Positions 5,074 through 63,441 of a DNA stretch of 64,000 bases are shown here, piece after piece. The stretch spans positions 7,438 to 71,437 of the forward strand of contig JANTFH010000006.1 of assembly GCA_024763535.1 (NCBI GenBank), in the 5' to 3' direction. How positions within the stretch are numbered: the first letter of the stretch is position 1; each line of letters starts with the position of its first letter. The notes under the pieces are model-generated. The model was not told the origin of the DNA and ran no database searches. It was given only the letters and a program-made list of their open reading frames with translations. The DNA is from Thermodesulfobacteriota bacterium (lineage in GTDB: Bacteria; Desulfobacterota; Anaeroferrophillalia; Anaeroferrophillales; Tharpellaceae). Both the position numbers and the translations under genes were made by a program.

Positions 5074-5076
5074 CGA

Positions 5077-6787: not shown

Positions 6788-7246
6788 ATGATTCGTACGG
6801 CAACAATAGAAGATATAAAAACAATCCAGCAGATGCTCGAATATTACGCCGACAGAGGACTGCTGCTGCCCCGTTCCCTGAACGACCTCTATGATAATTT
6901 GAGAGATTTCATTGTCTATCAGGAAGATGAGAATATTTCGGGTGTCAGCAGCCTGCATGTCTGCTGGGATGATCTCGGGGAGATTCGTTCACTGGCGGTT
7001 CTGCCGCCTCACACGAAAAAGGGAATCGGCCGCCGACTGGTTGCCGTTTGTGAAAATGAAGCTTTGCGGCTGGGTCTTAAGAGGGTTTTTACTTTGACTT
7101 ATCAGGAAAAATTTTTTTCTCGCCTGGGCTATAGAACTGTTGACAAGAGCCGGCTGCCGCATAAAGTCTGGGGTGAATGCTTAAAGTGCGTGAAGTTTCC
7201 CGACTGTGATGAAATCGCCATGATCAAAGAGCTTAAAACATCCTGA
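6788..7246 (+). CDS. GNAT-family N-acetyltransferase (short ArgA-like amino-acid N-acetyltransferase)
   Basis: 152 aa. Acetyl-CoA-binding motif RRLV..CENEALRLG, GxG signature. Start is 2 nt after the recN stop. Confidence 0.7.
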   Translation: MIRTATIEDIKTIQQMLEYYADRGLLLPRSLNDLYDNLRDFIVYQEDENISGVSSLHVCWDDLGEIRSLAVLPPHTKKGIGRRLVAVCENEALRLGLKRVFTLTYQEKFFSRLGYRTVDKSRLPHKVWGECLKCVKFPDCDEIAMIKELKTS

Positions 7247-7280
7247 GAATCGACCCCGGATACGAATAAGGCCTGAAGAT

Positions 7281-39930: not shown

Positions 39931-42024
39931 TCAGCTTTCCTCTTTTTCCAATTTGGCCGCTTCAACAATCTTGGCGGTCAGATGACTGGGGACCTCCTCA
40001 TAGTGAGAAAATTCCATCGTAAACATCCCTCGCCCCCCGGTCATCGAACGCAGATCCGGAGCATACTTCAAAACCTCAGACATCGGCACATGAGCTTTAA
40101 TCAATTGGCTGTTGGCCATCGGTTCGACCCCATTGACCTTGCCCCGACGACTGTTAAGATCACCGATAACGTCACCCATATAGTCGTTGGGAACATTGAT
40201 ATCCATCAGCATTATCGGCTCTAAGAGGGTCGGTTTGGCATCAATCACACCCTTTTTGAACGCCATCGACCCGGCGATCTTGAAAGCCATCTCGGAGGAG
40301 TCGACGGAGTGGTAAGAACCGTCGTACAAGGTCACCTTGACATCAACCACCGGATAGCCGGCTAAAACTCCTCCGGCCATCGCCTCCTGCACCCCTTTTT
40401 CAACGGCAGGAATATATTGACGCGGAACAACTCCACCGACGATACTGTTGACGAATTCAAATCCGCCGCCCTTGGGCAGAGGTTCAATCTTCAGCCAGAC
40501 ATCACCGAACTGACCCCGGCCGCCGGACTGTTTTTTATGGCGGCCCTGCAGTGAAACCGACTTCTTGATGGTCTCTTTATAGGGTACTTTAGGGGCATCG
40601 AGCTCAACATCAACCCCGAATTTACGTTTAATCCGATCGACGGTCACCTCAACATGAACCTGCCCCATGCCGGAAACCACCAGTTCCTTGGTCTGCTCAT
40701 TACGGCTGATGTGAATCGTCTGGTCTTCCGCCATCAAGCGCTGGAGAGCACTGCCGAGTTTCTCTTCATCACCCTTGCTCTTGGGCCGGAGAGAGAAAGA
40801 GATTACCGGTGACGGGAGGTTGAAACCCTTCAACTTAACCGGACATTTTTCGTCACAGAGGGTATCCCAGGTTGTAGTCTCCTTCAACTTGGCTACGGCG
40901 ACGATATCTCCGGGCACGCATTTGTCAATCGGAACCTGTTTATTACCTTCAAGCTTCAGAAGTTGACCGATACGCTCCTTGCGGTCTTTGGTACTGTTGT
41001 AACAGGTGGAATCCGAAGTCAGGGTACCGCCATAAACGCGGAAGATCGAAAGCTGACCGGTAAAGGGGTCGGAAATGGTCTTAAAAACCAGGGCCGAAAA
41101 AGGTGCGTCGACATCGGCTTTAAGTTCATACTCTTCACCCTCGGCCAGGTTTTCGGCAAACTGGGCCGGCCGCTCAAGCGGTGAAGGAAGACATTCACAC
41201 ATAATATCCATCAACGGCTGAATACCGATATTTTTAAGCGCCGAGCCGCAAACCACCGGCACGAATTTACCGGTCATGCAGCCCTCACGGGTAGCCCGGC
41301 GAATATCATCGACCGAGACTTCTTCTCCACCCAGATACTTTTCCATCAGATCATCATCAGCCTCGACGGCCCGTTCAATCATCGCCTCACGGGCCTCTTC
41401 CGCCTCAGCCTGCAAATGTTCCGGAATCTCTTCAGTCGTAAACTTGCCACTCTGATCATTACCATAGCGCAGAGCCTTCATCGTCACCAGATCGATAACT
41501 CCGATAAAGTCATCTTCCTTACCGATGGGAAGCTGCAGAACCAGCGGATAGCACTTGAAGGTCGACTCCATCTCACCGACAGCTCGGTTGAAATCGGCCC
41601 GTTCGCGATCAAGTTTACTGATAAAAACAACCTTGGGAACCTCATATTCATCGGCATATTTCCAGACCGCCTCGGTCTGAACCTTGACCCCGGAGATAGC
41701 ACTGACAATCACCACCGCACCTCCGGTTACCCGCAGGCAGGATTTGGTATCAACAATAAAATTGGCATATCCGGGAGTATCAATGATATTAAGATGCTTG
41801 CCCTGCCAGTCACAGTGATGGATGGCACTGCTCAAAGTGATCTTGCGTTTAATCTCCTCGGGCTCGGAATCGAGTACCGAAGTACCGTTATCAACACTGC
41901 CCAAACGTTTGGTGCTGCCACCGTTGAAAAGGATCGCCTCAGCTAAAGATGTTTTGCCGGCTCCGCCGTGGGCAATAATTGCAACATTTCTCAAATTTTC
42001 ACTTGTGTATGACTTCATATTCAA
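39931..42024 (-). CDS. Elongation factor G paralog (EF-G II / fusA2-like)
   Basis: 697 aa. G1 motif AHGGAGKTS (the EF-G II variant). Full set of five EF-G domains. Not in a str-operon context. Confidence 0.85.
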   Translation of the reverse strand: MNMKSYTSENLRNVAIIAHGGAGKTSLAEAILFNGGSTKRLGSVDNGTSVLDSEPEEIKRKITLSSAIHHCDWQGKHLNIIDTPGYANFIVDTKSCLRVTGGAVVIVSAISGVKVQTEAVWKYADEYEVPKVVFISKLDRERADFNRAVGEMESTFKCYPLVLQLPIGKEDDFIGVIDLVTMKALRYGNDQSGKFTTEEIPEHLQAEAEEAREAMIERAVEADDDLMEKYLGGEEVSVDDIRRATREGCMTGKFVPVVCGSALKNIGIQPLMDIMCECLPSPLERPAQFAENLAEGEEYELKADVDAPFSALVFKTISDPFTGQLSIFRVYGGTLTSDSTCYNSTKDRKERIGQLLKLEGNKQVPIDKCVPGDIVAVAKLKETTTWDTLCDEKCPVKLKGFNLPSPVISFSLRPKSKGDEEKLGSALQRLMAEDQTIHISRNEQTKELVVSGMGQVHVEVTVDRIKRKFGVDVELDAPKVPYKETIKKSVSLQGRHKKQSGGRGQFGDVWLKIEPLPKGGGFEFVNSIVGGVVPRQYIPAVEKGVQEAMAGGVLAGYPVVDVKVTLYDGSYHSVDSSEMAFKIAGSMAFKKGVIDAKPTLLEPIMLMDINVPNDYMGDVIGDLNSRRGKVNGVEPMANSQLIKAHVPMSEVLKYAPDLRSMTGGRGMFTMEFSHYEEVPSHLTAKIVEAAKLEKEES

Positions 42025-47280: not shown

Positions 47281-49821
47281 TCAGGAAAAATCGAGATATT
47301 TATAGATCTCAGCCTCTCTCTCTGCAGTCAGCTTCCGCTCTACCACTTCACGGTACTCGGCCAACGTCGGCAGGCGCCCGTAAAGAGCGGTTACGGCAGC
47401 CAGTTCAGCCGAACCGAGATAGACCTGAGCCCCGGCCCCGAGCCGGTTGTCGAAATTTCGGGTCGAGGTCGAAAAGACCGCCGCACCGTCCGCGACCCGG
47501 GCCTGGTTACCCATGCAGAGGCTGCAGCCGGGAATCTCTATCCGGGCCCCGGCCTGAACGAAAAGCGCATAATATCCCTCACTTTTCAGCTGTTCGGCAT
47601 CCATCTTCGTGGGCGGCGTCAACCACAACTGAGCCGGAGCCCGGCCCTCACCTTTAAGAATTTCACCAACCGCGCGGAAATGACCGATATTGGTCATACA
47701 GCTGCCGATGAAAACATCATCAATCTGTTTCAGCCGGCGCTCATCGGCCAGGATATCACTCAAGGTCGCGACATCGTCGGGATCGTTGGGGCAAGCCAGA
47801 ATCGGCTCTTTAATCGCCCCCATATCGATATCCAGCACTGCCGCATAAGCGGCATCACTATCAGCCCGCAGCAGTTCGGGATGAGCCAGCCATTCGCGCA
47901 TCTTCCGGGCCCGGCGCTGCAGGGTCGCAGAATCCTGATAACCGGCGGCTACCAAGTTGTCGATCAGAGCCGCATTCGAGGTTAAAAACTCACGCACCGG
48001 CTCAACCCCGAGTTGCACCGTGCAGGCAGCGGCGCTGCGCTCGGCCGAGGCGTCGGAGAGTTCGAAAGCCTGTTCACAGGTAAGCTCTTCGAGCCCCTGG
48101 ATTTCGAGAATACGGCCGGCAAAAATATTCTTTTTCCCCTCTTTGGCAACCGTCAGCAGGTCCGCTTCAATCGCTTTAAGAGGAATCGCATTGACCAGAT
48201 CGCGCAGCGTAATTCCGGGTCGACGCCGGCCCGAGAAACGCACCAGCACACTCTCCGGCATATCGAGCGGCATCGAGCCGGCAACCGCGGCAAAGGCGAC
48301 CAATCCGGAGCCTGCGGGAAAAGATATTCCCAACGGAAAACGGGTATGTGAATCAGCCCCGGTACCAACGGTATCGGGCAGCAGCAGACGATTAAGCCAG
48401 GAGTGGATGACGCCGTCTCCGGGAGCCAGCGAGACTCCGGAACGCTCTGTAATAAAGCCCGGCAGACTCCGGTGCATCGCCACATCAACCGGCTTGGGAT
48501 AGGCGGCCGTATGACAGAAAGACTGAAGTACCAGATCGGCGGAAAAATGGAGCGCCGCCAGTTCTTTAATCTCATCTTTGGTCATGGGCCCGGTGGTATC
48601 CTGGCTGCCGACAGTGGTCACTTCGGGCTCGATATACATCCCCGGCTTAACTCCGTCCCGGCCGCAGGCCCGGCCGACAATCTTCTGGGCCAGGCTGTAA
48701 CCACCGCCTGAAACTTCCGGCTGCACCGGTTCCACAAAGATGCCGCCGTCTTCTTCAAGGCCCAGAACCTGGCGGGCATTGCGGGTCAACTCCCGGCCGA
48801 TCAGCAGCGGGATTCTGCCGCCGGCGCGAAATTCATCCGCCAGGGTTTCCGGCTGCAGCTTGAAACGGCTTACCACCCGGCCCTCTTTCTCAATCACCCC
48901 GGCATACGGTTTTACCGTAATCACATCACCATGGGCCAGATTTTCCACCGGGGCGATCAGCGGCAGAGCTCCTGAATCCTGAGCCGTATTGAAAAAAATC
49001 GGGGCGATAATGCCACCGATAACGACCCCGCCCCCCCGTTTATTGGGGACCCCGACGAGATCGCTGCCGAAGTGCCACTGAATCGAGTTAATCGCCGATT
49101 TACGGCTGCTGCCGGTGCCGACAACATCGCCGACATAAACCAGCGGATGGCCCTTGCCGCGTAAACCCTCCAACTCTGCCAGAGGATCCTGCAGACGGGC
49201 CGCCAGCAGGGCCTGGGCATGGAGCGGGATATCACTGCGGCTGGAAGCTTCGGAGGCCGGGGAGAGGTCATCGGTATTGGTCTCACCGGGAACCTTGAAG
49301 ACGGTTAGAACCAGCTCTTCCGGCAATACCGGGCGGCGTTTGAACCAGTTGCCTGAAGCCCATGATTCGAGCAGTTTCCGGGCCCCTGCATGACCGGCCG
49401 CAAATTTATCGACGACATCCGCAAAAGCATCGTAGATCAACAGAGTATTTTCCAGGCTCAGGATAGCAGCTTCAGCAACTTCGCTGCGGTCATTCTCCAT
49501 CGCCTCAAGCAGCGGGGCGATATTATAGCCGCCACGCATCTCTCCCAGCCAGGCGACCGCCTGTACAGGTTCAATTCCAACACTATTTATCCGGCCGCTG
49601 ATAACTTCGGCCAGGAAACCGGCCTTAATCCGGGCCCCGTCATCAACCCCGGGGTTGACCCACTCCCGCAGCAGATAGAGCATATAATCCCGCTCTTTGT
49701 CTTCAGCTGACTGCAGCTGCGCAATAACCGCCTTAACCTCGGCTGCCTGCAGCGGCAGAGGCGGAATACCCGCCGCCTGCCTGGCCGCTGCCATTTTTTC
49801 ATACTCCTGCAAAATTTCCAT
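47281..49821 (-). CDS. acnB: Aconitate hydratase B (bifunctional aconitase 2 / 2-methylisocitrate dehydratase)
   Basis: 846 aa. N-terminal AcnB HEAT-like domain. Swivel domain. Fe-S Cys ligands (CSLCMGN). Confidence 0.9.
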   Translation of the reverse strand: MEILQEYEKMAAARQAAGIPPLPLQAAEVKAVIAQLQSAEDKERDYMLYLLREWVNPGVDDGARIKAGFLAEVISGRINSVGIEPVQAVAWLGEMRGGYNIAPLLEAMENDRSEVAEAAILSLENTLLIYDAFADVVDKFAAGHAGARKLLESWASGNWFKRRPVLPEELVLTVFKVPGETNTDDLSPASEASSRSDIPLHAQALLAARLQDPLAELEGLRGKGHPLVYVGDVVGTGSSRKSAINSIQWHFGSDLVGVPNKRGGGVVIGGIIAPIFFNTAQDSGALPLIAPVENLAHGDVITVKPYAGVIEKEGRVVSRFKLQPETLADEFRAGGRIPLLIGRELTRNARQVLGLEEDGGIFVEPVQPEVSGGGYSLAQKIVGRACGRDGVKPGMYIEPEVTTVGSQDTTGPMTKDEIKELAALHFSADLVLQSFCHTAAYPKPVDVAMHRSLPGFITERSGVSLAPGDGVIHSWLNRLLLPDTVGTGADSHTRFPLGISFPAGSGLVAFAAVAGSMPLDMPESVLVRFSGRRRPGITLRDLVNAIPLKAIEADLLTVAKEGKKNIFAGRILEIQGLEELTCEQAFELSDASAERSAAACTVQLGVEPVREFLTSNAALIDNLVAAGYQDSATLQRRARKMREWLAHPELLRADSDAAYAAVLDIDMGAIKEPILACPNDPDDVATLSDILADERRLKQIDDVFIGSCMTNIGHFRAVGEILKGEGRAPAQLWLTPPTKMDAEQLKSEGYYALFVQAGARIEIPGCSLCMGNQARVADGAAVFSTSTRNFDNRLGAGAQVYLGSAELAAVTALYGRLPTLAEYREVVERKLTAEREAEIYKYLDFS

Positions 49822-49864: not shown

Positions 49865-52800
49865 TTATTTAATTTTTATCTCCACCTGCCGACCCCGGGC
49901 ACCATCCGCAACCGACGCCTCAGTCACCAGCTCCGGAGCCACCAGAAAAAGCCGCTTAGCCTCAAGCGGGCCTTTAGTCGACAGAAAACTCATGACTGTC
50001 TGAGCCCGATTTCTAGCCAGAGCCAGCAGTTCATCATCTCCCACCTTAACAAACTGCCGCAGGAGCCGTTCCTGCTCAGCCGGTTTGATCTTCTTCACTA
50101 ATAGAAGAATTTTCTCTTTTTCGATCGGCGCCGCCTTATATGCCTGCCAGAGATACTCCTTGAATTCATCCTTTTTGATAACCACATCGGTAATCGCCGA
50201 AGGCCGCTCTTTAGCCGACATATCCTTAAATTTCTGCGCCTTGAGAAGCTTCATGAAATGGGCCTCCTGCAGAGCCTGCCTATCACTTTCGGCACCCGCC
50301 CGACCGATAATATCAACCTTCAAACCCGGCCGGTCGTAAAGTACTCCCGCCAGCTTAGTCAGACGCTCTTCGGCACTCTTATCAAGTTCCGCCCGGCCCG
50401 CGGCAAAATTTACCTGATTAAGTTCTTCACCGCCGCCGGCCAGAGAACCGATAAGCGCAAAAGGTGAAGTTACCGCCTTGGTAATAAGGTTGATAAAAAC
50501 CTTGAAAACAACCCCGCCGAAACTGAATTTAGGATCATCCAGATCACCCGACACCGGAAGATTAAGATCAATCTCACCCTGCCGGTTACGCAGCAGGGAA
50601 ACCGCCAGTTTAACCGGCAGGCTGACCGCATCGGGGCTGTTGGTCGTGGAACCGAAATCAAACTGATCGATAAAGATAGCATTGCGGGCCAGCAAATGAT
50701 GATCTTCAATATGATAAGTCAAATCGAATGAAACCTTACCTTTACTGATCAAATGACCTATATATTTGCCGCTGTAGGGACTGGCCGAGGTTAACCCCAG
50801 GCCCTCCCCTTTAATTTTCATATCCGCAAAGAGAGACTCGCCCAGAGGATTAACCGCCCCCGAGATTGAAACCGGGGCCTGACGGTTCAAGCGGCCGGAA
50901 AGTTTAAGATCAGCCGGCTTCTCCCCTAGCGAGGTAAGGCCGGTAATCGAACCGTTAAGCTCATCAAAGCTAATTTCCACTGCCGGGGAGATGGAACGAT
51001 CGCGGAATGTAAGCGAGCTGTCATCCAAGACCAGCTCTTTAAGATCCAGACTCATAGACTTGCCCGTGGAGTTCTCCGCACTCTTTACTGGGCGGCGGCC
51101 GGCTTTATCAACAGCCGGAGCATCAGCTTTTTTGACGACTATCTTCTCAAGATTGGTGAGACCGTCAGGATCTTTGATAACCTTCACCTTAAGCCCCTTA
51201 CACACTACCTGTTTGAGTGCGAGAGCCGGAGGCTGAAAGTGATAGCTTACCCGGTTTAAAGCTAAATGCTGCAGACTCAGAATATCATCCGCCCGCCGGT
51301 TACCAACCGTCTTCAGGTTGTCTAAAGAGAGGTTGCCGGCAAAATCAATCCGATTGTCACCTTTTGCGCTCTTGATACGCAGATGCCCGCCGGTGGCAAA
51401 ATCGCCTCTGACTAAAACCAGATCAAGATATTCATCCAGATAGTTCTGGAGTAGCGGCAGGGGGAACTTCTTCAGATCGACATCAAGCTCAGCCTGCGGC
51501 GGATCGATGCCTGCCGTACCTTTAAGCCGGAGTTTTCCTTTTTTTGCCAGCCGCAGCCGCAGGTTAAGTTTCCCGGTTTCATTCCGGCCGGAGCCGAACT
51601 TGTCGATCCGCAGATTAACCCGGTCGGCATTCAAGAGAGCCGGCCCGGAAGGAACTTGATCTTTAAAGGTCAAGGCACAGTCGCTCAGGCTGCCCCGGTT
51701 CAGCATCAGATGCCATAGATTTTTGGCAGACGGCACCGACGCCGGGGTTTTGGTCTGCCCCTTGACGCTTGCCGCCGGCATCAGATCGGCAAGATTCAGG
51801 CTGCCGTCCGGACGCCGGGCAAGCTGTAGATGTCCTTTATCTCCTTTGAATGAACCGATCACACATTCGTGCCGGTCGAGGTCGATTACACTTTGAGATA
51901 TCTCAAAATGGGGCAGATCAAGGACTACAGTGCCGTCCGCTGTGCTCAGCTTACAATCATCAAGCTCGCAGCCCAGATTCTCAAACTGCATTCGGATATC
52001 ACCGGAAGCGGGCTTGGCAACCGCAACCTCACCTGCAAGACTTAAGTGACTGCCGGCAAACTTCCCGGCAAAGAAAGGTCGATAATAAGCGGCGTACTGC
52101 GGCAGCGGCAGATCCTTAAGAGCAAAATGAGTTTTTACATCTAAAGGCTCCAGAGCAAAATCTCCGTCCCCGGTAAAGGATTCGCCACGATCACTCTTAA
52201 ATTTGAGGCTGTAACGGGCCCGCTTGCCCGCAGCCGTGGTAAAATTTTCAAGTTCTAAATCGAGCGGATAAAAATGAGCGGAAAAAGCCGGATCAACCCG
52301 ACGGTCTAAAACCGTCAAAGCCCCCTCCTGCAGTTGCAGTTTAGCTAAACGAAAAACAATCCTGGACGCGGATTTTTTTTCAGTTTTCGGCGGAGCGGCG
52401 GCGGCCGCAGCCGCTTTCCGGCCATCGCTGCTGGCCGCAGCGATCAGCATCGGCAGGTAAAAAGCACCGTCCGGTTTATGCAGAAAATTAAACTCCGGCC
52501 GGCGGCAGACAACCTCATCAAGAAAAATCTCTCCCGCCAGAAGATTACCGGCCCCTAAAGTAACCACCAGTTCCGGAATCGAGATAAAACGATAATCGGA
52601 CTCTTCGTCCTTGCCGTTGATCACGAGCTCCTTAATCGTGGAGCGGCCGCTTAAGGTCAGCCGGGGTGACTGCCTGGGGGGCTGGATATACACCAGATCA
52701 AGAGTGGTACTCAGGAAACCCGAAGTTAAGGCAAAGTTACGTTTACCCGGCAGGTAGGAGAGGTAATAGGGCAGATCCAGTCTATCCAGATTAATCGCAA

Positions 52801-53503
52801 AATGAGTCTCAAGGCTCTGATCAAAAGGCAGAGTTTTACCTTTGGCATTTAACCGGGTACCGTTAACCACCGCAGAAAAAGAGGGTTCGACATTGGTTTT
52901 AACCAGGTGAGGCAGGTTTGAAATCTGCGGCAGGCTGATCGAGATTTCAGTAATTTTATGGGCCGTACTCCGGCAGTTATCGTCAATAACCAGCATCCCT
53001 TGCGTCAGGATGATGTTGTTCAGAGAAAAATGAAAAGCGGAAACTTTTTCTCTCTGATCTTTCTTCCCACTCTCCGGGGCGGTCAACAGTTCCAGGAGAT
53101 CAGAGAAATTATAGCTCAAATCAGAGTTCCGGGTCACTTTGCAATAAGGTCCCCGAATCTCCACTCGTTCAAGCACCAGGGCCCGGTTACGCAGTGAAAG
53201 GAAACCGGCACTGTCCAGCAGCAGATCATCAACCTTGAAAAAGATATTTTGATCGCGGCGGTCTTTAACTATAAAATCGTTAACCTTCAACTGCAGGGTA
53301 AAGGGGTTAAACTGAACCCCGGCAATCGTCACCGGCCGCTGTAAAAGATCGGGCAGGCGCTTTTCCGCCTGATTTTTAAGCACCCAGGGCAGCAGGAAGA
53401 AGCCACTTAAAGTATATATCAGCGACAACAACATCAGGATCAGCAGACCCACATGCCAACGACGCAACTTTGAACTTTTTTTCACCCTCTCTGTTTCGCT
53501 CAT
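49865..53503 (-). CDS. Giant AsmA/TamB-like envelope protein (N-terminal membrane anchor, DUF748-like)
   Basis: 1212 aa. N-terminal TM (HVGLLILMLLSLIY). Long predicted beta-rich body. Confidence 0.55.
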   Translation of the reverse strand: MSETERVKKSSKLRRWHVGLLILMLLSLIYTLSGFFLLPWVLKNQAEKRLPDLLQRPVTIAGVQFNPFTLQLKVNDFIVKDRRDQNIFFKVDDLLLDSAGFLSLRNRALVLERVEIRGPYCKVTRNSDLSYNFSDLLELLTAPESGKKDQREKVSAFHFSLNNIILTQGMLVIDDNCRSTAHKITEISISLPQISNLPHLVKTNVEPSFSAVVNGTRLNAKGKTLPFDQSLETHFAINLDRLDLPYYLSYLPGKRNFALTSGFLSTTLDLVYIQPPRQSPRLTLSGRSTIKELVINGKDEESDYRFISIPELVVTLGAGNLLAGEIFLDEVVCRRPEFNFLHKPDGAFYLPMLIAAASSDGRKAAAAAAAPPKTEKKSASRIVFRLAKLQLQEGALTVLDRRVDPAFSAHFYPLDLELENFTTAAGKRARYSLKFKSDRGESFTGDGDFALEPLDVKTHFALKDLPLPQYAAYYRPFFAGKFAGSHLSLAGEVAVAKPASGDIRMQFENLGCELDDCKLSTADGTVVLDLPHFEISQSVIDLDRHECVIGSFKGDKGHLQLARRPDGSLNLADLMPAASVKGQTKTPASVPSAKNLWHLMLNRGSLSDCALTFKDQVPSGPALLNADRVNLRIDKFGSGRNETGKLNLRLRLAKKGKLRLKGTAGIDPPQAELDVDLKKFPLPLLQNYLDEYLDLVLVRGDFATGGHLRIKSAKGDNRIDFAGNLSLDNLKTVGNRRADDILSLQHLALNRVSYHFQPPALALKQVVCKGLKVKVIKDPDGLTNLEKIVVKKADAPAVDKAGRRPVKSAENSTGKSMSLDLKELVLDDSSLTFRDRSISPAVEISFDELNGSITGLTSLGEKPADLKLSGRLNRQAPVSISGAVNPLGESLFADMKIKGEGLGLTSASPYSGKYIGHLISKGKVSFDLTYHIEDHHLLARNAIFIDQFDFGSTTNSPDAVSLPVKLAVSLLRNRQGEIDLNLPVSGDLDDPKFSFGGVVFKVFINLITKAVTSPFALIGSLAGGGEELNQVNFAAGRAELDKSAEERLTKLAGVLYDRPGLKVDIIGRAGAESDRQALQEAHFMKLLKAQKFKDMSAKERPSAITDVVIKKDEFKEYLWQAYKAAPIEKEKILLLVKKIKPAEQERLLRQFVKVGDDELLALARNRAQTVMSFLSTKGPLEAKRLFLVAPELVTEASVADGARGRQVEIKIK

Positions 53504-53798: not shown

Positions 53799-55298
53799 AT
53801 GATAAAGAAATTTGTTGCCGGCCTGTCGGTCTTAAACTATCTCGGCTCTCTGCTGTTCATATTCGGTTTCCTGATAATGCTTCCGGCCCTGATTCATCTT
53901 ATCTTTCCCGGGCCCGGAATTTCAGTCCGGATTATTTCGGCCTTCGTCGGACCGGGCCTGCTGCTGATCTCAGGCAGCCTGCTTCTGACCCGAAGATTGC
54001 CGACCAAGGTTCCCGATATCCTGGAGAGCATGATTATCACGGCTCTGGCCTGGATGATAGTCTCTCTGGTCAGCGCGGTGCCGATATTTATAATCCTTAA
54101 ACACTCTTTTATCGATGCTCTCTTTGAAGCGACCAGCGGCATTACGGCTTCGGGGCTGACGGTTTTTACCGGACTCGACCAGATGCCGCCGGCGCTTCTT
54201 TTCTGGCGCTCTTTCATGCAGTGGATCGGCGGCATCGGAATTCTGACCTTTTTCCTTGCCGTCAGTTTCCGGGGCGGCAGTGCCGCGGCTATCCTCTTTA
54301 ATGCCGAGAGTCACAAAATCAACAGTAGCCGGCCGGTACCCGGAATCTTCAACACGGTCAAAATTATCTGGGCGATCTACGGCTGCATGACGATATCCGC
54401 CTTTTTCCTGCTCTACCTTGAGGGCATGACCCTGTTTGATGCGATCAACCACACCTTGACTCTGGTCTCCACCGGCGGCTTCTCAACCCACGACGCCTCA
54501 ATCTCATACTTCAGCGGCTTCAGACACGGAATTTTGATCGAATACACGATGATAATCTTCATGCTCATGGGCGGCACCAACTTTCTTCTCCATTACAAAG
54601 TGGCCACCGGCAACTGGCGCGCGCTCTACCGGGATTTTGAGATGCGCCTCTTCTGGGCCCTGATTATCGGCGCGGTTCTAATTATTGGAGTTGATATCTA
54701 TATCGCTGTGGGAGAAAAATTTTTATCTTCGTGGACCAACTTCCACCTCCACTTTCGCACGGCCCTCTTTCAGACGGTCTCGGTCATCACCAGCACCGGC
54801 TATACTACCCGGCACCTGAACGACCCCTACTACCCGGCCCTGGCCAAACAGGTTTTTCTGCTGCTGATGTTTATCGGCGGCTGTATCGGTTCAACCGCGG
54901 GCGGCTTCAAGGTATTGCGTTTAGGCATACTCTGGCAGACTCTGGTCAGTGAATTAAAGCAGCTTTCACTCTCGCCCAATGCCGTAATTCCCCTGGTTAT
55001 CCAGAAGAAGATTATCTCTCCGCACGAGATAAAACGGATCTGCGCTCTGCTTTTTGCCTGGATTTCCCTGATCTGGGCAGGCACGGCCCTGACTCTCTCC
55101 TGCACTGATCTTAACGGCAATCAGGCTCTCTCCGGCATGCTCTCCGCGGTCAGCAATATGGGGCCATTTTTTTTCTCAACCCCGGAGCTGGCCGCCTTTC
55201 CCGCCGTCGTTAAAACCTGCTATATTTTCGGCATGCTGGCCGGCCGCCTGGAGGTGCTGCCGATCTTTCTCCTTTTCGCCCGTTTGATCCGGAGATAG
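53799..55298 (+). CDS. trkH: TrkH/KtrB-family K+ transporter subunit
   Basis: 499 aa. Repeated M1-P-M2 units with Gly filters (TASGLT, TGGFS, TGYT, GGCIGSTAGG). Confidence 0.85.
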   Translation: MIKKFVAGLSVLNYLGSLLFIFGFLIMLPALIHLIFPGPGISVRIISAFVGPGLLLISGSLLLTRRLPTKVPDILESMIITALAWMIVSLVSAVPIFIILKHSFIDALFEATSGITASGLTVFTGLDQMPPALLFWRSFMQWIGGIGILTFFLAVSFRGGSAAAILFNAESHKINSSRPVPGIFNTVKIIWAIYGCMTISAFFLLYLEGMTLFDAINHTLTLVSTGGFSTHDASISYFSGFRHGILIEYTMIIFMLMGGTNFLLHYKVATGNWRALYRDFEMRLFWALIIGAVLIIGVDIYIAVGEKFLSSWTNFHLHFRTALFQTVSVITSTGYTTRHLNDPYYPALAKQVFLLLMFIGGCIGSTAGGFKVLRLGILWQTLVSELKQLSLSPNAVIPLVIQKKIISPHEIKRICALLFAWISLIWAGTALTLSCTDLNGNQALSGMLSAVSNMGPFFFSTPELAAFPAVVKTCYIFGMLAGRLEVLPIFLLFARLIRR

Positions 55299-55368
55299 TG
55301 GCCCTGGTCTTAAACGACAGATAGAATGAAGCAAAAAAATTAAACCTTCAGAACAAAAGGAGATTATC

Positions 55369-56037
55369 ATGTATGCAGTAATCGCCGGGGGCGGTATCGG
55401 CGGCTCCCATGTCGGCCAGATGCTGGCCAATCGCAAGGATGATGTTGTCATTATCGACCACGATCAGGCCCGTTGTGAAAAACTTTATGCTGAAACCGGA
55501 ATTATCTCGATTAACGGTGAGGCCACCGATATTCTGACGCTGAAGGAGGCCGGCATCGAAAGGGCCGATGTCGCCATCGCCACCCTCTACAAGGATATCG
55601 ATAATCTGGCCTTTTCTCTGCTGGCCCACAGTTTTGGGGTTTCCAAGATAATGGCCAAGATGCGCCACCCGGATTATGCCGAAGCCTACCGTTTCGCCGG
55701 AGTTACCACCATCTGTAATATGATCGAACTTTTTCAGAATAAGATTATCATGGAACTTGAAAACCCGGATATCCAGATAATCTCCCAGATCAAGCTCGAC
55801 ACCCTTCTGGTTATGGTCAAATATCCGGAAAACCGCCATATCGAAGGCATCAGTATCAGCGAACTTTCTCAGCAGAAGGCCTTTTCCCGGGATTGCGTTT
55901 TTGCCGGGGTACTCCATGAAGACACGGAAAAGATCACCATGCCCAGAGGCGATGATCTGGTTTTCCCCGGAGACCGGCTCTTTCTCGTGATCAACAGCCG
56001 TCGGGTTGCGGGGATATCTCATTTTCTGAAAAAGTAG
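55369..56037 (+). CDS. trkA: TrkA/KtrA K+-uptake regulatory subunit (RCK_N + RCK_C)
   Basis: 222 aa. Rossmann AGGGIGG. C-terminal TrkA_C. Confidence 0.8.
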   Translation: MYAVIAGGGIGGSHVGQMLANRKDDVVIIDHDQARCEKLYAETGIISINGEATDILTLKEAGIERADVAIATLYKDIDNLAFSLLAHSFGVSKIMAKMRHPDYAEAYRFAGVTTICNMIELFQNKIIMELENPDIQIISQIKLDTLLVMVKYPENRHIEGISISELSQQKAFSRDCVFAGVLHEDTEKITMPRGDDLVFPGDRLFLVINSRRVAGISHFLKK

Positions 56038-56338
56038 AACTTCCTGGCAAACCGGCCCCCAGGCTGCCGGCAATCTCCGAAATTTTCCCGGGCACCCAAG
56101 GCTTGCGATTTCCCGGAACCGCAAGTAGCAACCCTGAAAAATTGTATCTTTTCGCGACATTCTCCTTGCAATTTATTTTTATTTAGAGTATAGGCCGCGT
56201 GCTTCTCCGCTTTGACCTTAGTAATAAGGTTAGGAAAAGGCCCGGCTGGTGGTGATCTCTTCAGGCCGGCACACCATATTCCTTTTTAGTTATTTTTTTA
56301 GTAACGAATAACAGATTAAACAGATTATGGTTCCCAAG

Positions 56339-56379
56339 ATCGCCCGCATTCACTGATAGCGATTGCGGGCGCGTTTTTA
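56339..56379 (+). terminator. Rho-independent terminator in the middle of the 437-bp trkA / EF-G intergenic region
   Basis: CGCCCGCA...TGCGGGCG stem followed by TTTTTA; about 95 nt upstream of the EF-G start. Confidence 0.5.
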
Positions 56380-56474
56380 TTGTTCAATGTATTACGACAT
56401 AAAAAAGCATTACGTTTTCGAGCGGCCGACAAATAATCAGCGGCCCACAACATGAAGTGTCAAAGGTGAAAAAG

Positions 56475-58565
56475 ATGAGCAAGGAATTAAGCAAGGTACG
56501 TAATATCGGGATCAGCGCCCACATTGACTCGGGCAAGACCACTCTGACTGAAAGAATTCTGTTTTACACCAACAAGATTCACGCGATCCACGATGTTAAA
56601 GGTAAAGACGGCGTCGGAGCCGTTATGGACTCGATGGAGCTCGAAAAAGAGCGCGGCATTACAATCGCTTCCGCGGCGACCTTCTGCGAGTGGAATGATC
56701 ATGCCATCAATATAATCGACACCCCGGGCCACGTCGATTTCACGATTGAAGTCGAACGCTCTCTCCGGGTGCTTGACGGAGCTATCCTGGTTCTCTGTTC
56801 GGTCGGCGGGGTTCAGTCTCAGTCGATTACCGTTGACCAGCAGATGAAACGCTACAAGGTTCCCTGCATAGCTTTTGTCAATAAATGTGACCGCAGCGGT
56901 GCCAATCCGGAAAGGGTTGTCAGCCAGCTTAAGGAGAAACTCGGTCATAATGCTATAGCCATGCAGCTGCCTATCGGCCTCGAAGCGGCTCATGAAGGAG
57001 TGGTTGACCTGGTAACTATGGAAGCTCTCTATTTCGACGGTGAGAATGGAGAAATTATCAGACGCGAAGAGATTCCGGCCGAGCTTCAGGAAAAAGCGGA
57101 AGAGAGACGGGAAGAGCTGATTGAAATGGCCTCCAATTATTGCGATGATCTCGCCGAAGCCTTCCTCGAGGAGCAGGAGATCAGCCCCGATATGATTTTG
57201 CAGGCGATGCGTAAAGGAGTGCTGAAACGGGAGGTCACCCCGGTCTACATTGGTTCAGCCTATAAGAACAAAGGGGTGCAGCCGCTGATGGATGCGGCCA
57301 CCCAGCTGCTGCCCGACCCCTCGGAAGTTACCAACATCGCCCTTGATCTGGATCGGGATGAAGCTGAAGTCGTACTCAGCAGCAGTTCAGAAGATCCCAC
57401 CGTAGCCCTCGCCTTCAAACTTGAAGACGGTCAGTACGGACAGCTCACCTACATCCGGGTCTACCAGGGAGTTCTCGCCAAAGGCGACACCCTGATTAAC
57501 ACCCGCAGCGGGAAAAAGATAAAAATCGGCCGCCTGGTGCAGATGCACTCCAACCAGATGGAGGATATCAATGAGATCTCGGCCGGCTATATCGGTGCCC
57601 TGTTCGGTATCGACTGCGCCTCCGGCGACACCTTTGCCGATCCCAAGCTCAATTACTCGATGACCTCGATGTTCGTTCCCAATCCGGTCATCTCTTTGGC
57701 TCTTGTTCCGAAAGACAACAAGTCTCAAATCAATATGTCCAAGGCCTTGAACCGCTTCTCGAAAGAGGATCCGACCTTCAGGACTTACGTTGATGAAGAG
57801 ACCAACGAAACCATTATTGAGGGCATGGGTGAACTTCACCTTGAGGTCTACGTTGAACGTATGCAGCGTGAATACAATGCTGAAGTAAACACCGGCCAGC
57901 CCCGGGTCGCCTACCGTGAAACCATCACCAAACGGGCCGACTTTAACTACACCCACAAAAAACAGACGGGTGGTTCCGGTCAATACGGCCGCGTCGCTGG
58001 TTATATCGAGCCTTTTGCCGACGGTGAATTTGAGTTCATCAACAAGATTACCGGCGGAGCGATTCCAACCCAGTTTATCTCCTCCTGCGAGAAAGGCTTC
58101 AAAGCCAGTCTGGCCAAAGGGGCGCTTATGGAATTTCCAGTAACCGGCATCCGGGTCGAGATCAACGACGGGGCCTCACATGCCGTCGACTCCTCGGAGA
58201 TGGCCTTCCAGGCGGCCGCCCGCGGCGCTTTCATAGACGCCTACAAGAGAGCAAAACCGGTTATTCATGAACCGATCATGAAGGTTGTCATTGAGACTCC
58301 GACTGAGTTTCAGGGCACCGTCATGGGCACCATCAACCAGCGCCGGGGCACGATCCTCGGCGCCCAGGAAGAGGGCCCTATGTGCGTAGTCGAGTGTCAG
58401 GTACCCCTGGCTGAAATGTTCGGCTATTCCACCGTTCTCCGCTCCAGCACTCAGGGCAAGGCCCAGTTCACCATGGAGTTTGCCAACTACAAGCAGGTAC
58501 CGCAAAGTATTACGGAAGAGTTGCAGAAGAAGAGAGACGAAGAGGCCAAGAAAGGCGCGGCTTAA
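56475..58565 (+). CDS. Elongation factor G paralog of the mitochondrial/spd type (spdEFG1-like)
   Basis: G1 region [24 protein letters not shown] is typical of mtEF-G1/spdEFG1. Full EF-G domain set. Start moved to [13 protein letters not shown]. Confidence 0.85.
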
Positions 58566-58621
58566 TGAGCACACCAATTTCCAGTGCCCGGGTAATCTAC
58601 CTTAGAGAAAGGAGCTTTACT

Positions 58622-59317
58622 ATGTTAAAAAAAGATTTGATGATGCGCAACCCCTTAAGAGCGGTCAGCGATGCAAATGGTTATATCCTGCCGGAAGGTG
58701 GCCTCGGGGCGGTTGTCGCCCGCGCCGGTGTCGGGAAAACAGCCCTTTTAGTACAGCTGTCATTAAACAGTCTGCTCAAAGGTGACAACGCCCTGCATAT
58801 CAGTTTAGGCGATCCAGTTCGCAAGGTCAGCCTCTGGTATCGTGAGGTATTCAATAATATCGGCACCCACTACAAGATTGACAAAATTGATGATCTCTGG
58901 AATGAGCTGCTGCCGCAACGGTTCATCATGACCTTCAATATTGACGGTTTCAGTGTGCCGCGTCTGGATGAACGCCTGACTGAACTTGCCGACCAGGACA
59001 TATTCCATCCTCAGATGATTCTTATCGACGGCCTGCCATTCAATGAGCAGCTCAAACGCACCGACCTGCACGCCTTGAAGGATCTCTCGGAAAAATTCAA
59101 CTCCCACATCTGGTTCACGGTCCGCAGCCATCGTCATGAAGAGCCGGATGCCGAAGGCCTGCCGATCCAGATCAGCGAATATGCCGATCTCCTTGATGTT
59201 GCCATCAAACTTGAGCCCGAAGACAACGAGATCAGGCTTAACGTCTTGAAAGGCAGCGGCTCGATCTCCACCCAGGATCTCTCTCTCGATCCGGCAACCA
59301 TGCTGATCAAAGAATAG
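58622..59317 (+). CDS. Single-domain RecA-superfamily ATPase (KaiC/RadA/GvpD-like, COG0467-type)
   Basis: Walker A ARAGVGKT. Walker B QMILIDGL. Strong AAAGGAG SD before the ATG at 58622. 56 nt after EF-G, with no intervening terminator. Confidence 0.6.
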   Translation: MLKKDLMMRNPLRAVSDANGYILPEGGLGAVVARAGVGKTALLVQLSLNSLLKGDNALHISLGDPVRKVSLWYREVFNNIGTHYKIDKIDDLWNELLPQRFIMTFNIDGFSVPRLDERLTELADQDIFHPQMILIDGLPFNEQLKRTDLHALKDLSEKFNSHIWFTVRSHRHEEPDAEGLPIQISEYADLLDVAIKLEPEDNEIRLNVLKGSGSISTQDLSLDPATMLIKE

Positions 59318-59345
59318 GAACCTACAAGACAAGCATTAGAATTAA

Positions 59346-59382
59346 AAGGCGGGATGAGATTTTCATTATCCCGCCTTTTTTC
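59346..59382 (+). terminator. Rho-independent terminator after the KaiC-like gene (GGCGGGAT...ATCCCGCC followed by T7)
   Basis: Seen directly in the sequence. Confidence 0.65.
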
Positions 59383-59997
59383 AAGCCATCACATTGCAAC
59401 TCTTTTTAGTTTCTCCACTCCAGCAAACATCCATAATAAGTCAAGCCTGCCCCATTCATTGCACTTTTACTGCTCTCCGGCCCAACATCAAGTGGAGTCT
59501 GGCAATCGGGGTTTAAGTGCCAAAGGTCCACTCCCAAGCCAGGCTTCGCAATACTGCTCATGGCCCCCGCTTTGATAATCAGCAATGAATTAAATACTAC
59601 CCAGTGTCACATCTGGTTCTGTATCTGGCAAAACATAAACCGAGCCACAGATACCATCAATCGAAATCTCATCGTCTAAACCATGATCATTATAATAATT
59701 GCTGATAAAATCATTCAAAATATGAGATTGCCATCGGTTTAATTGTTCAAATAAATTCCGTCGTTCCCATTTGATTCACAGTGATTACAGCAAATGCTGT
59801 AACTATCAATGTGATCTCCATATATTCCTGAAAAGAATGAGTTAATGTCTTTTCCATTTCTGTTCCTCAATTTTTTTCAAGCCAACAAAGTAATTGACAC
59901 AATAAATATAGTTATATTACAGTATTTTTAATAAAAACATGGTAACAACTACATCATATCCTGGATTCTCCTGTAATATTTGAGGTTCAAGCCCCCC

Positions 59998-62013
59998 ATG
60001 AACAACCCTTCAACTCTCCCTCTAGCCACTCTTTTTGAAGGAGACCTGCCTAAGTTTCTTAAACAAATAGAACCATTCAAGCATACAAGAGACGATATCT
60101 GTAATTTTCTGACAGCTGCCCACACTTCGCTTTTTCCCGTCCCGACTCAGGAATTTGCGACTGAGCAAGATCCCGACGTTGCCGCAGCCATTATCGGACT
60201 GACTGTCGCCGCCGGATTGAACCGGGGTAATGAGCTAAGTCAGCTCAACCCTTATCATGAGAAGATTAAGGAACTGCTCACCGAAACAAAACTTTCGCCA
60301 ACCGCCAGGGCTTTCCTGCTTTTGCATCAAGCCCAGATTGAACTGATCGTCCACGGCGACCTGACGCAGGCGGAGTCCACCTTCAGAAAGCAGCAGTTGG
60401 CCGCCGAGAAAGCGGCATCTTCATCACTCAAGCTGCTGGGTGCCGCTTTTTATGCTTACTGTCTCACCTGGTCCGGCGATTTAGCTCAGGCCGAAATAAT
60501 TCTCAAGGACAGCGCCCCGTTGCTCGTGAAAGAGGGGCTGCCGCCGCCGGCCATAATGCAATTTCAGATAAGCAACGGCTTGATCAGTGCCCTCTGTGGA
60601 CAGACATCAGAGGGTTTTAAGTCGCTCTCGACATTAGTTGAACACCCCGGTTTTACCAACACTCCACCAACCATACAGTTGTTGACCCTGGGGCACCTGC
60701 TTGATACCAGAATCATTATCGGCAACCTCGACGAAATCGAAAGAAATGCAGAGATGATTCGTGCTCTGGCAATTCCTGACAACAACAATTTCTACCGTAG
60801 CCACCTCCATTTCAACCTGGGCATGGCGGCCCTCAGTCTAGGCCGTCCTCACAAGGCCTTACGCCACAGCGAAGAAGCCAGGTTCCGATCCGGTTTGAGC
60901 CAATCCCCAATTGCAATTCGCAGGAATGCACTATTGCACGGCCTGACCCTGGCCGATCTCGGCCGCCGAAAGGAAGCCCTGAGCCACTTGCAATCCTGGG
61001 TTAAAAACTGGCAGGAATGTAATTTTAATCTGATTGCCGCCCTCGGTTATCTTGAAATCTCCGCCATCCATGCTGCAACTGGCGATTTCGACCAGGCCCG
61101 TCTGGCCTGGAAACAGGCATACGCCCTACTCCCTCCAGGCGAAAAAATGCCATACCAATATCGACCAACGACCTTTTACGGAGAGCTTGAAGAGAAGATT
61201 TTTCCTGAAAAACGTAACTACATCAAGGAGACTGACTATTATCCGGTAAAGATCACCACTCTGGGTGAATTTTTTATAGAGATTAACCAAAAAAAGGTCT
61301 CGATTAAGGAGTGGCGTGGCCGAAAAAGCCGGAATCTGCTTTTTGCTCTGATTGCCCACGGCGGTCGCAAGGTCCCCAGAGAACAACTGGCAACTATGCT
61401 CTGGCAGGATAGTGACGGGGATCTGGCCGATAACAGTCTCAATGTTACCCTCTCGCGACTGCGCCGGATCGGTTGCGACAACGGCCACAAGCCATTTCCC
61501 TGGCTGGTGGCAAAAAACCGCATGATTTGGCTGGATAAAGATCTTTGCCGGGTGGATGCCCTGGATTTTAAGCAAGAAATCACCAAAGTCCTTAAACAGG
61601 CAAGCGGGACTCCGGCCCTGACCAGAGTTCTTGACAGTTACAGCGGCAGCTTCCTGCCGACATTCAAAGGATTGATCTGGCTCGATAAATTTCGCGATGA
61701 ATTGGCGCAACTCTACGTCCGGGGCGTGTTAGTCCGGATCGAAGAACTGCTCCATGAGAACCAGGAACGTACCGCCCTGGCTTTGCTGGCAAAGGCCAGC
61801 AGCCACGCCCCCCTCTATGAAAAAATCTGGGGCCGCCGCATGCAGATTCATATCGACAACGGAGAAGCCGCCCAGGCCCTGAGTGTCTATCGCCAGGCTG
61901 AAACCAACCTGGCCGCCAATCTTGACATCGAACCCGGCCCCCGGCTCCAGGAACTGGCCCGAATAGCCGGTAACCGGCCATCCCGCCAGGTGTGGAGTAA
62001 AGAGAAAAGATAA
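59998..62013 (+). CDS. SARP/AfsR-family-like transcriptional regulator with permuted architecture: N-terminal TPR/helical-repeat region, C-terminal OmpR-type wHTH and BTAD, no NTPase domain
   Basis: C-terminal ITTLGEFFIEINQKKVSI..RKSRNLLFALIAHGGRKVPREQLATMLWQD..LNVTLSRLRRI matches the SARP wHTH pattern, followed by BTAD-like helices. The N-terminal 400 aa are helical repeats with no Walker A. The alternative TTG start at 59980 is not excluded. Confidence 0.65.
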   Translation: MNNPSTLPLATLFEGDLPKFLKQIEPFKHTRDDICNFLTAAHTSLFPVPTQEFATEQDPDVAAAIIGLTVAAGLNRGNELSQLNPYHEKIKELLTETKLSPTARAFLLLHQAQIELIVHGDLTQAESTFRKQQLAAEKAASSSLKLLGAAFYAYCLTWSGDLAQAEIILKDSAPLLVKEGLPPPAIMQFQISNGLISALCGQTSEGFKSLSTLVEHPGFTNTPPTIQLLTLGHLLDTRIIIGNLDEIERNAEMIRALAIPDNNNFYRSHLHFNLGMAALSLGRPHKALRHSEEARFRSGLSQSPIAIRRNALLHGLTLADLGRRKEALSHLQSWVKNWQECNFNLIAALGYLEISAIHAATGDFDQARLAWKQAYALLPPGEKMPYQYRPTTFYGELEEKIFPEKRNYIKETDYYPVKITTLGEFFIEINQKKVSIKEWRGRKSRNLLFALIAHGGRKVPREQLATMLWQDSDGDLADNSLNVTLSRLRRIGCDNGHKPFPWLVAKNRMIWLDKDLCRVDALDFKQEITKVLKQASGTPALTRVLDSYSGSFLPTFKGLIWLDKFRDELAQLYVRGVLVRIEELLHENQERTALALLAKASSHAPLYEKIWGRRMQIHIDNGEAAQALSVYRQAETNLAANLDIEPGPRLQELARIAGNRPSRQVWSKEKR

Positions 62014-62115: not shown

Positions 62116-63342
62116 CTAACGGTTCCTACCCCAGCCCAAATCTGACCAGGATCTTATTCTCCAGGAACCGGCGTTCAAACCATCCAATTGCGTCAGGGTG
62201 GCCGGCCCTTCAATGACAATGCCTTCTACGGTTACGGTGCCCGCCGAAATCGTCAAACTCCCGTTGATCGTCGAACTGTACCCGGTATTATCACTGTAAT
62301 CCGCATTCCAACCACCTCTTAAAAAGATGTCAACATCCTCATCCAAAGTCAATTCTTCAAGGAAAAAGCCCTTTTCACCGACCCTGATTTCACTGCCGTT
62401 TGCAGACGCGGAGTAAGCCCCAAAAACCGAGCTGAAACAGGGTTTAAGACCATTACAATAGCTGTCATCACAAACATATAGAATACCGGAATCAACACCG
62501 GTTCCGGTTAGAGCGACAAGCTGCGGGGTTTCAGGATCATTGCTGGGAATAGAGAGGGTGGCGGTTTTTACGCCAAGTGATCCGGGAGTAAAAACCACCT
62601 CAACCGTCCGGCTGTTACCAGGCTCAAGCATCTCCCCGGAGCAATTATCATTTGTCAGACTGAAACATGTCGCATCAGAGCCAGTGATCACCAAAGGACC
62701 AATTACAAGATTAACATCTCCGCTATTAGTGACTTGCAAAGTTTTGCTAGAGCCGCTTCCGTCGAACTGAACCTCGGCAAAATCCAGAGATTCGTTATCA
62801 ACATCAAGAACAGGTGCTGGAGGGGTCTCTGTTTTTGTCGTGGGATCAGCGTCACGCTGAAACTCTTCAAGATCACTCAAGCCATCATTATCGCTATCGC
62901 CACTGCCGTCAGAAGCTGTCAAACTTCCGAAATAAGCCATTTCCCAAACATCAAGCATGCCATCATCATCACTGTCTTCAGTCGCCAGGTGAAGCCTGAT
63001 GATCTCCCCCATGGGTCCAACCGTCAAGGTCGCAGCGGCCGTAATTTCACCGTCGACAAAGATTTCGACCGTATCTCCCGGGCGGGCGGTACCGGGAATC
63101 TGGGGATCAAGCGAGTCAATCGGCAAGCGCAAAATATAATACGGTGCCAGCCTGGAATTCGTGGCGACACTAAAAGCGGCGATCTCAACCCCGTTGACTT
63201 TCGCGGTCACGCTGGCACTGTTCTCCCGGGCCACACCGTAAATAATATTATCCGGCTCCGGCAGCCTTGCATGAGCACTGAAAGCAAAAAAACAAATTGC
63301 AACAATAATGCTGCCGACCAAACCCACTTTAAGTATGTTCAT
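62116..63342 (-). CDS. Secreted/cell-surface protein with acidic Ca-binding (thrombospondin-type-3-like) repeats and a choice-of-anchor-D-like beta domain
   Basis: Signal peptide MNILKVGLVGSIIVAICFFAFSAHA, start moved to 63342. DSDDDGMLD...DSDNDGLSD repeats. FDGSGSSKTLQVTNSGDVNLVI motif. Confidence 0.55.
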   Translation of the reverse strand: MNILKVGLVGSIIVAICFFAFSAHARLPEPDNIIYGVARENSASVTAKVNGVEIAAFSVATNSRLAPYYILRLPIDSLDPQIPGTARPGDTVEIFVDGEITAAATLTVGPMGEIIRLHLATEDSDDDGMLDVWEMAYFGSLTASDGSGDSDNDGLSDLEEFQRDADPTTKTETPPAPVLDVDNESLDFAEVQFDGSGSSKTLQVTNSGDVNLVIGPLVITGSDATCFSLTNDNCSGEMLEPGNSRTVEVVFTPGSLGVKTATLSIPSNDPETPQLVALTGTGVDSGILYVCDDSYCNGLKPCFSSVFGAYSASANGSEIRVGEKGFFLEELTLDEDVDIFLRGGWNADYSDNTGYSSTINGSLTISAGTVTVEGIVIEGPATLTQLDGLNAGSWRIRSWSDLGWGRNR

Positions 63343-63441
63343 ACCAGCCCCCAAGCCCTTTTCACAGTTGCTTGCATCTATCAATACTCCCATTCATAAA
63401 TTACAGGTGCCCTTAGTTTAAGAGCCAGATCCCCCGCGCCG

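Follow-up and report, generated by a model that had tools for sequence, protein, structure and literature searches.

An uncharacterised RecA-fold P-loop protein is encoded directly downstream of the elongation factor spdEFG1 in five phyla

Among the paralogs of elongation factor G (EF-G), spdEFG1 is the one specialised for translocation, and the split between spdEFG1 and spdEFG2 is a bacterial model of the mitochondrial division between translocation and ribosome recycling. Atkinson and Baldauf are said to have described, in 2011, the subfamily of EF-G that holds spdEFG1 and mitochondrial EF-G1. Although few proteins have been studied as thoroughly as EF-G, we know of no dedicated co-encoded protein partner in the textbook picture of it. 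The stretch of DNA analysed here, 64,000 nucleotides of contig JANTFH010000006.1 from a Thermodesulfobacteriota bacterium (positions 7,438 to 71,437 of the forward strand), will be called the window; it contains an spdEFG1 gene followed directly, on the same strand, by the gene of a single-domain P-loop protein with the RecA fold, which will be called the partner. Published descriptions of spdEFG1, unlike this locus, mention no conserved downstream partner. The method by which Margus et al. examined EF-G gene contexts was confined to genes with E. coli orthologs (PMC3150367), and because of that restriction it would miss the partner. An earlier note on the window had taken the pairing to be undescribed, and indeed no description of an spdEFG1-partner pairing was found in the full-text literature searched, the coverage of which leaves out most subscription journals.

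Two described systems come close in concept. In the Snu114-Brr2 pair, a GTPase of the EF2 family is paired with a RecA-fold NTPase and regulates it; this is a precedent by analogy only, since the pair is eukaryotic and spliceosomal and Brr2, a large SF2 helicase, is homologous to the partner in the RecA core alone. Proteins of the FusB/FusC type are small EF-G binders that change how the factor behaves on the ribosome. They differ from the partner in having an unrelated fold and in being resistance determinants encoded apart from fusA, and no similarity between them and the partner was detected.

The EF-G gene of the window occupies 56475..58565 (+), from an ATG at 56475 to a TAA at 58563-58565, and encodes 696 amino acids. 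The protein scores 986 bits against the EF-G equivalog model TIGR00484 (cutoff 659), and GTP_EFTU, D2, EFG_III, EFG_IV and EFG_C are each matched over cutoff, giving the complete EF-G architecture (G with G', II, III, IV and V). Its switch I contains a three-residue KDG insertion, which is the signature of spdEFG1 according to Margus et al. (PMC3150367). The best PDB matches are chains of mitochondrial EF-G1 (801 bits), well ahead of Thermus thermophilus EF-G (666) and E. coli EF-G (663); by bit score, the protein groups with mitochondrial EF-G1 rather than with EFG I. The gene lies outside the str operon, with trkH and trkA upstream and a SARP/TPR regulator downstream. It thus shares with spdEFG1 and mitochondrial EF-G1 the five domains, the KDG insertion, the location outside the str operon and the best structure scores. 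Because of the KDG insertion and of mitochondrial EF-G1 as the best solved relative, the protein is identified from its sequence as spdEFG1, the bacterial counterpart of mitochondrial EF-G1; the earlier note had gone as far as an EF-G of the spd type. It is expected to be a functioning translocase and not a spare copy.

Related loci were sampled from one genome per GTDB species, which gave 20, and from a scan of metagenomes, which gave 80 more. The earlier note had made conservation of the gene pair in relatives the test of its proposal, and the pair is conserved: a same-strand EF-G gene lies directly upstream of the partner gene in the window and in all 100 of the related loci whose upstream DNA is long enough to tell. 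Look-ups of the genomic context of single family members returned the same arrangement in 10 of 10 cases, including members 28-35% identical to the window partner, and adjacency holds where partner identity drops to 28-31%. Each of the ten loci without a detectable EF-G has at most 459 nt of upstream DNA; one of them, L040, is of a long-spacer type (see below) and is cut before EF-G. In locus L017, from the metagenome-assembled genome of a member of Syntrophaceae, the EF-G gene (3912-5904) gives two adjoining matches that meet at 4382/4384 and lack query residues 170-188 between them, which suggests a frameshift or an assembly error.

The lineages with the pair are Ca. Tharpellota, Thermodesulfobacteriota (Syntrophales and Desulfobacterales), Myxococcota, Spirochaetota (Alkalispirochaeta americana) and Fibrobacterota (Chitinispirillales), and the genes around the pair differ from one lineage to the next. 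The closest relatives of the window partner, with 95% identity, are found in Ca. Tharpellota. Where the N-terminus of the linked EF-G was available (61 proteins), the switch-I insertion reads KDG in 60 and KDN in one. The phyletic range of the partner family (spirochaetes, 'delta-proteobacteria' and Fibrobacter) mirrors that reported for spdEFG1, which was found in those groups and in planctomycetes (PMC3150367). Pairwise distances between the EF-Gs and between their partners are strongly correlated (Mantel r = 0.94, a value that none of 2000 permutations reached), and remain so within one subclade (r = 0.83). The correlation is as expected for co-inheritance and is by itself no proof of contact. 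On balance we consider it somewhat more likely than not that the partner is a direct functional partner of spdEFG1 in translation.

The partner is a member of the RecA superfamily by fold and belongs to no curated family. Its Pfam match is to AAA_25 at 22.5 bits (cutoff 27) and its NCBIfam match to KaiC_arch_3 at 18.5 bits (cutoff 249). A search of a collection clustered at 90% identity returned 2401 homologs, and the family makes up 530 clusters at 50% identity (E <= 1e-3); most of the homologs are stand-alone proteins of about 230-236 amino acids. AlphaFold2, given an alignment of 57 sequences, produced a model with a predicted local distance difference test score (pLDDT) of 88.3 and a predicted template modelling score (pTM) of 0.87. 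With this model, Foldseek placed the DnaB C-terminal domain, the CI domain of KaiC and the RAD51 paralogs on top (template modelling score, TM, 0.62-0.73; 12-18% identity; probability 1.00). No direct sequence homolog was found in the PDB at E <= 10. A profile of the partner matched the helicase domain of T4 gp41 best (E = 1.6e-7), over a region that runs from Walker A through the beta-2 strand and includes Walker B. Two other candidate contexts were discarded: PADLOC gave only noise of 13-16 bits for a role in anti-phage defence, and tblastn against 72,556 plasmids returned no match for a location on plasmids or mobile elements.

Conservation of motifs was computed over 483 family members from four sampled groups, with residue numbers referring to a 250-residue form of the window partner. 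Residues G55, G57, K58 and T59 of Walker A (GxxGxGK[ST]) and D155 of Walker B (hhhhD) are conserved in about 99-100% of members. His78, Trp91-Tyr92 and Trp183 are invariants of the partner family and not KaiC motifs, H78, Y92 and W183 being essentially invariant in the whole set. The catalytic glutamate of the superfamily comes after strand beta-2, as S-x-E in DnaB and gp41 and as EE in KaiC. The column of the catalytic glutamate of gp41 and DnaB (position 82) holds glycine in the window partner, and glutamate in 40 of 119 sequences from Desulfobacterota, 29 of 118 from Myxococcota and none of 120 from spirochaetes, all of which have serine or alanine. Lys229, in the C-terminal strand, is 90-100% conserved and, we presume, may match the lysine/arginine finger region of KaiC. 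Because the nucleotide site is intact but the canonical catalytic glutamate is not conserved, the partner is predicted to be an NTP-binding protein with slow, weak or unusual hydrolysis. The earlier label of 'KaiC/RecA-like ATPase' therefore stands as to fold and nucleotide site, on the AlphaFold2 model and the Foldseek matches; ATPase activity is not established, the canonical catalytic glutamate not being conserved.

With the CI domain of KaiC and with single-domain KaiC-like proteins such as the archaeal ArlH/FlaH, the partner shares a RecA-type core, a size of about 230 amino acids and Walker A and B motifs, and its model has a TM of 0.64-0.73 to KaiC-CI. ArlH itself is the nucleotide-binding, weakly hydrolysing partner of another machine. 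The differences are an identity of 15-18%, sub-cutoff scores, the absence of an EE catalytic pair, a single domain, and the absence of clock or archaellum genes nearby. The partner is also not KaiC proper, being single-domain (231-250 amino acids) where KaiC has CI and CII in tandem, and no kai genes occur in the contexts examined.

These likenesses suggest a special case of the reading of the partner as a direct functional partner, in which it would be a KaiC/ArlH-like autokinase, or a sensor of ATP and ADP, and would modify spdEFG1 or sequester it, at the switch-I insertion for instance, and so tune elongation to the energy state of the cell. Such a switch would accord with the place of KaiC-CI near the top of the structural matches (TM as high as 0.73), with the weak matches to archaeal single-domain KaiC models and with an intact nucleotide site whose hydrolytic residue is degenerate, a combination also found in slow enzymes of the KaiC type; moreover, switch I is precisely where spdEFG1 departs from other EF-Gs (PMC3150367). 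The KaiC models, however, score far under their cutoffs (18.5 bits against 249 for the window partner; 22.3 bits for a spirochaete family member), and the partner showed neither a KaiC phosphorylation-site motif nor a second domain, nor did genes like KaiA or KaiB turn up beside it. We consider this special case unlikely.

The other structural relatives point towards nucleic acids. The C-terminal ATPase domain of SF4 helicases (DnaB, T4 gp41) is both the best PDB profile match and a top Foldseek match of the partner, which differs in having neither the N-terminal helicase domain nor the linker and in carrying glycine at the column of the gp41 catalytic glutamate. Myxococcota, Haliangium among them, encode the partner as a fusion with a C-terminal domain of some 190 amino acids in which the motifs SGxAxGxE, GGTGW and GTGTR are invariant, and the fused gene (7001-8365 in locus L106; 6001-7293 in locus L108) lies 5-13 nt after an spdEFG1. 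PHROG 768, named 'DprA-like DNA recombination-mediator', matches 9 of the 9 C-terminal domains tested (best E = 9e-9) and was the sole match, Pfam, NCBIfam and profile searches of the PDB having returned none; Foldseek matches of the fusion are swamped by the RecA domain. The fusion would join in one chain two folds that, as DprA and RecA, cooperate on single-stranded DNA. It differs from that pair in lying, still, directly behind spdEFG1, and true membership in DprA is without sequence support from Pfam, NCBIfam or the PDB. The DprA-like domain is absent from the window partner.

From these observations arises the main rival to the view of the partner as a translation component: that it is co-regulated with spdEFG1 without cooperating with it, being a handler of nucleic acids (a DnaB/RecA-like single-strand binder or a recombination mediator) whose level tracks growth or translation capacity. 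There is precedent in the rpsU-dnaG-rpoD operon, which ties ribosomal protein S21 to primase. Apart from the gp41 profile match, the DnaB and RAD51 paralogs among the Foldseek matches and the DprA-like match in all nine fused domains, some family members bear the database names 'DnaB helicase C-terminal domain-containing' or 'SF4 helicase domain-containing'. Yet the family is without the N-terminal domain of helicases and does not conserve the SF4 catalytic glutamate, no gene of DNA metabolism is a conserved neighbour in the contexts examined, the partner is never away from spdEFG1 in 100 loci, and the frequent translational coupling to EF-G (see below) is more typical of subunits or partners. 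We regard co-regulation alone as possible, if rather doubtful.

The junction between the two genes bears on how they are expressed. According to the earlier note, the ATPase gene starts 56 nt after the EF-G stop, behind a strong Shine-Dalgarno sequence. There is indeed an ATG at 58622, 56 nt past the stop, which AAGGAG (58609-58614) precedes at 7 nt; another in-frame ATG, at 58565, overlaps the EF-G stop as TAATG (58563..58567, +). The TAATG overlap is present in 17 of the 20 loci of the clade of the window, where it always adds 19-20 residues to the partner, and the other three have an in-frame start codon near the EF-G stop. In the branch of Desulfobacterota and Tharpellota, the 12 codons 5' of ATG 58622 are under coding selection, with third-position variation and three-base periodicity, and the amino acids A-x-[VI]-I-Y-[LI]-K-E-R-x-F are conserved before Met20. 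Across 86 distinct sequences these codons contain 3 stops in frame, whereas each other frame has 57-66; together with the periodicity, this rules out the region as a purely RNA-level signal. Because TAATG is conserved in the clade and coding selection extends upstream of 58622, the real partner gene is probably 58565-59317 (+), which would encode the 250-residue long form, a single-domain protein of the KaiC/DnaB fold, and overlap EF-G by 1 nt; the distance of 56 nt thus applies to the second ATG and not to the probable start.

The element formed by the Shine-Dalgarno sequence and ATG 58622 (58609..58624, +) would give a short form of 231 amino acids. Its ATG corresponds to Met20, which is invariant in the family, and in spirochaete, Fibrobacterota and Myxococcota loci the partner starts at the equivalent of Met20, 5-57 nt after EF-G. 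Because the AGG codon within AAGGAG is nearly invariant at all three positions, 58622 may serve as an additional internal start. A stop/start overlap of the TAATG type is a classical arrangement for coupling by termination and reinitiation; in many other lineages, the gap between EF-G and the partner is -11 to 17 nt. The junction (58540-58640) folds to -17.2 kcal/mol, no better than dinucleotide shuffles (z = +0.91), so that it contains no stable structure and a hairpin sequestering the Shine-Dalgarno sequence, or any other RNA structure of the junction, was rejected, in accord with the earlier remark that no hairpin lies between the genes.

A different kind of junction occurs in a subgroup of Desulfobacterales, where most of a 'spacer' of 150-630 nt encodes additional N-terminal residues of the partner: the partner frame remains open over a median of 78 codons, the other frames over 17-20. 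The extension consists of 40-90 low-complexity, mildly basic residues rich in S/A/K/R/P and often begins with MANSKQSD (for example L022, 5670-6228; L040, 1-459; and many gene calls of 310-320 amino acids). The genes of this subgroup are also set apart by AT-rich DNA that appears to be non-coding and reaches about 330 nt, and hairpins resembling intrinsic terminators are absent from most of the longer spacers. The AT-rich stretch before the extension could hold a promoter of its own. This would suit the supposition that the two genes are independent, the partner having its own promoter in the window as well and the adjacency being a historical remnant without function. A consensus scan found neither promoter nor terminator between EF-G and the partner in the window, which belongs to a candidate phylum in which promoter prediction is unreliable, a circumstance that also leaves room for independence. 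Against it, neutral synteny is not normally kept down to 28% identity, in five phyla and through full turnover of the flanking genes, and in the window the genes are joined by an overlap of 1 nt, or set apart by a gap of 56 nt, with no terminator in the junction. Independence of the two genes appears very improbable.

Downstream of the partner, a terminator at 59344-59381 (+) has a 14-bp stem, an 8-nt loop and a run of six U, and folds to -23.4 kcal/mol (z = -4.85, a stability that none of 200 shuffles equalled), so the description of a clean terminator after the ATPase gene only was correct. With both genes on one strand, a stop/start overlap, no internal terminator and a terminator after the partner, the sequence has the makings of a two-gene operon with translational coupling, and EF-G and the partner are predicted to be co-transcribed.

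A mechanism can be outlined for the partner as a direct functional partner of spdEFG1. The operon would be bounded by a terminator-ended leader upstream and by the strong terminator downstream. Because the start of the partner overlaps the stop of EF-G, ribosomes finishing EF-G would reinitiate at TAATG on the partner, and this coupling would cause both proteins to be produced jointly at a constant ratio. The partner, which by analogy with its structural relatives would probably form rings, may serve as a switch or scaffold that binds NTP and hydrolyses it slowly or in an unconventional way. It would work alongside spdEFG1 by attaching to the factor itself, to the ribosome or to single-stranded RNA, and thereby support or regulate translocation. 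We infer its oligomeric state, its dependence on nucleotide and its contact with EF-G or the ribosome.

More boldly, and only tentatively, the partner can be proposed as an unrecognised bacterial translation factor: a nucleotide-dependent, probably ring-forming protein of the RecA fold, stoichiometric with spdEFG1, that engages mRNA, tRNA or the ribosome, or else acts as a switch set by ATP state, and that has been co-inherited with spdEFG1 since before the split of spirochaetes, Fibrobacterota and the former delta-proteobacteria.

Several points weigh against a direct partnership in translation. Adjacency and co-inheritance do not prove contact, and adjacency was counted in one direction, from partner loci toward EF-G. 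The AT-rich DNA between the genes in the Desulfobacterales subgroup means that strict coupling is not universal. To our knowledge, mitochondria use EF-G1 without a homolog of the partner, and because they do, translocation of the EF-G1 type does not intrinsically need one. Finally, the nearest relatives act on DNA (DnaB, T4 gp41, RAD51 paralogs), and with the DprA-like fusion they could indicate nucleic-acid transactions unrelated to translation.

Upstream of the pair, a putative sigma-70-like promoter, TTGCAA-N17-TATAGG (56166..56194, +), lies about 300 nt before EF-G; it is kept almost base for base in 13 loci of the clade of the window and was missed by a generic consensus scan. After it comes a structured RNA (56195..56382, +), either a leader or a small RNA, that is terminator-ended and stops 92 nt before the EF-G ATG. 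The element is present in 13 of the 13 loci of the clade that have enough upstream DNA, is 155-190 nt long and ends 75-102 nt before the start of EF-G. RNAalifold predicted 26 base pairs from a 12-locus alignment, five of them with compensatory changes. Its terminator hairpin (56342..56381, +) pairs GCCCGCA with UGCGGGC ahead of a U-run; the surrounding 56320-56400 folds to -22.2 kcal/mol (z = -1.83), and the stem and T-run are kept in all aligned loci.

Rfam returned no match for the leader at the gathering threshold or at E <= 10, and its identification as a known riboswitch or small RNA was dropped. A covariance model finds it in loci of the clade of the window only, so it is not a universal part of the operon, and a leader peptide was discounted as well, since conservation of the ATG-GTT frame with respect to the terminator is lacking. 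The alignment of the clade shows no conserved promoter from the leader terminator to the start of EF-G. The leader is equally open to being read as an attenuator of the spdEFG1 operon or as a separate small RNA gene, and the hairpin at 56342-56381 either ends an upstream transcript of trkHA or the leader or attenuates read-through into EF-G.

The leader is preceded by trkH (53799-55298) and by a gene for TrkA (55369-56037, +; TrkA_N and TrkA_C), so that the order on one strand is trkH-trkA-leader-spdEFG1-partner. A minus-strand orf at 55348-56160 (270 amino acids, no family match) was rejected as a divergent neighbour, being the shadow of the plus-strand TrkA gene. Downstream of the operon are a SARP/BTAD-TPR transcriptional regulator (59980-62013, +) with a TTG start and a choice-of-anchor-D/Ig-like secreted protein (62116-63393, -), neither of which is conserved beside the pair in other lineages. 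Unrelated to the pair, a 1212-residue AsmA/DUF748 protein (49865-53503, -; DUF748, 911 bits) adjoins aconitase B (47281-49821).

The earlier description of the EF-G as a paralog is upheld by a second EF-G gene inside the window (39931-42024, -; 697 amino acids; 978 bits against NF009381). Its product is 38% identical to the spdEFG1 of the window, is without KDG and has the unusual G1 motif AHGGAGKTS; it is a candidate for either the spdEFG2 or the EFG II subfamily, and spdEFG2 is the paralog that spdEFG1 accompanies in genomes lacking EFG I. On the same strand after this gene are an orf for a low-complexity, membrane-anchored protein of 311 amino acids (38963-39898) and a RelA/SpoT gene (36778-38919).

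Because its gene stays with spdEFG1 across five phyla and is often translationally coupled to it, the partner ranks as a strong candidate for a component that has so far been missing from the spdEFG1/spdEFG2 system, and a protein family with thousands of members outside curated models gains its first functional hypothesis. If the partner is instead a co-regulated handler of nucleic acids, the pair would represent a new, deeply conserved operon that ties the handling of nucleic acids to translation capacity.

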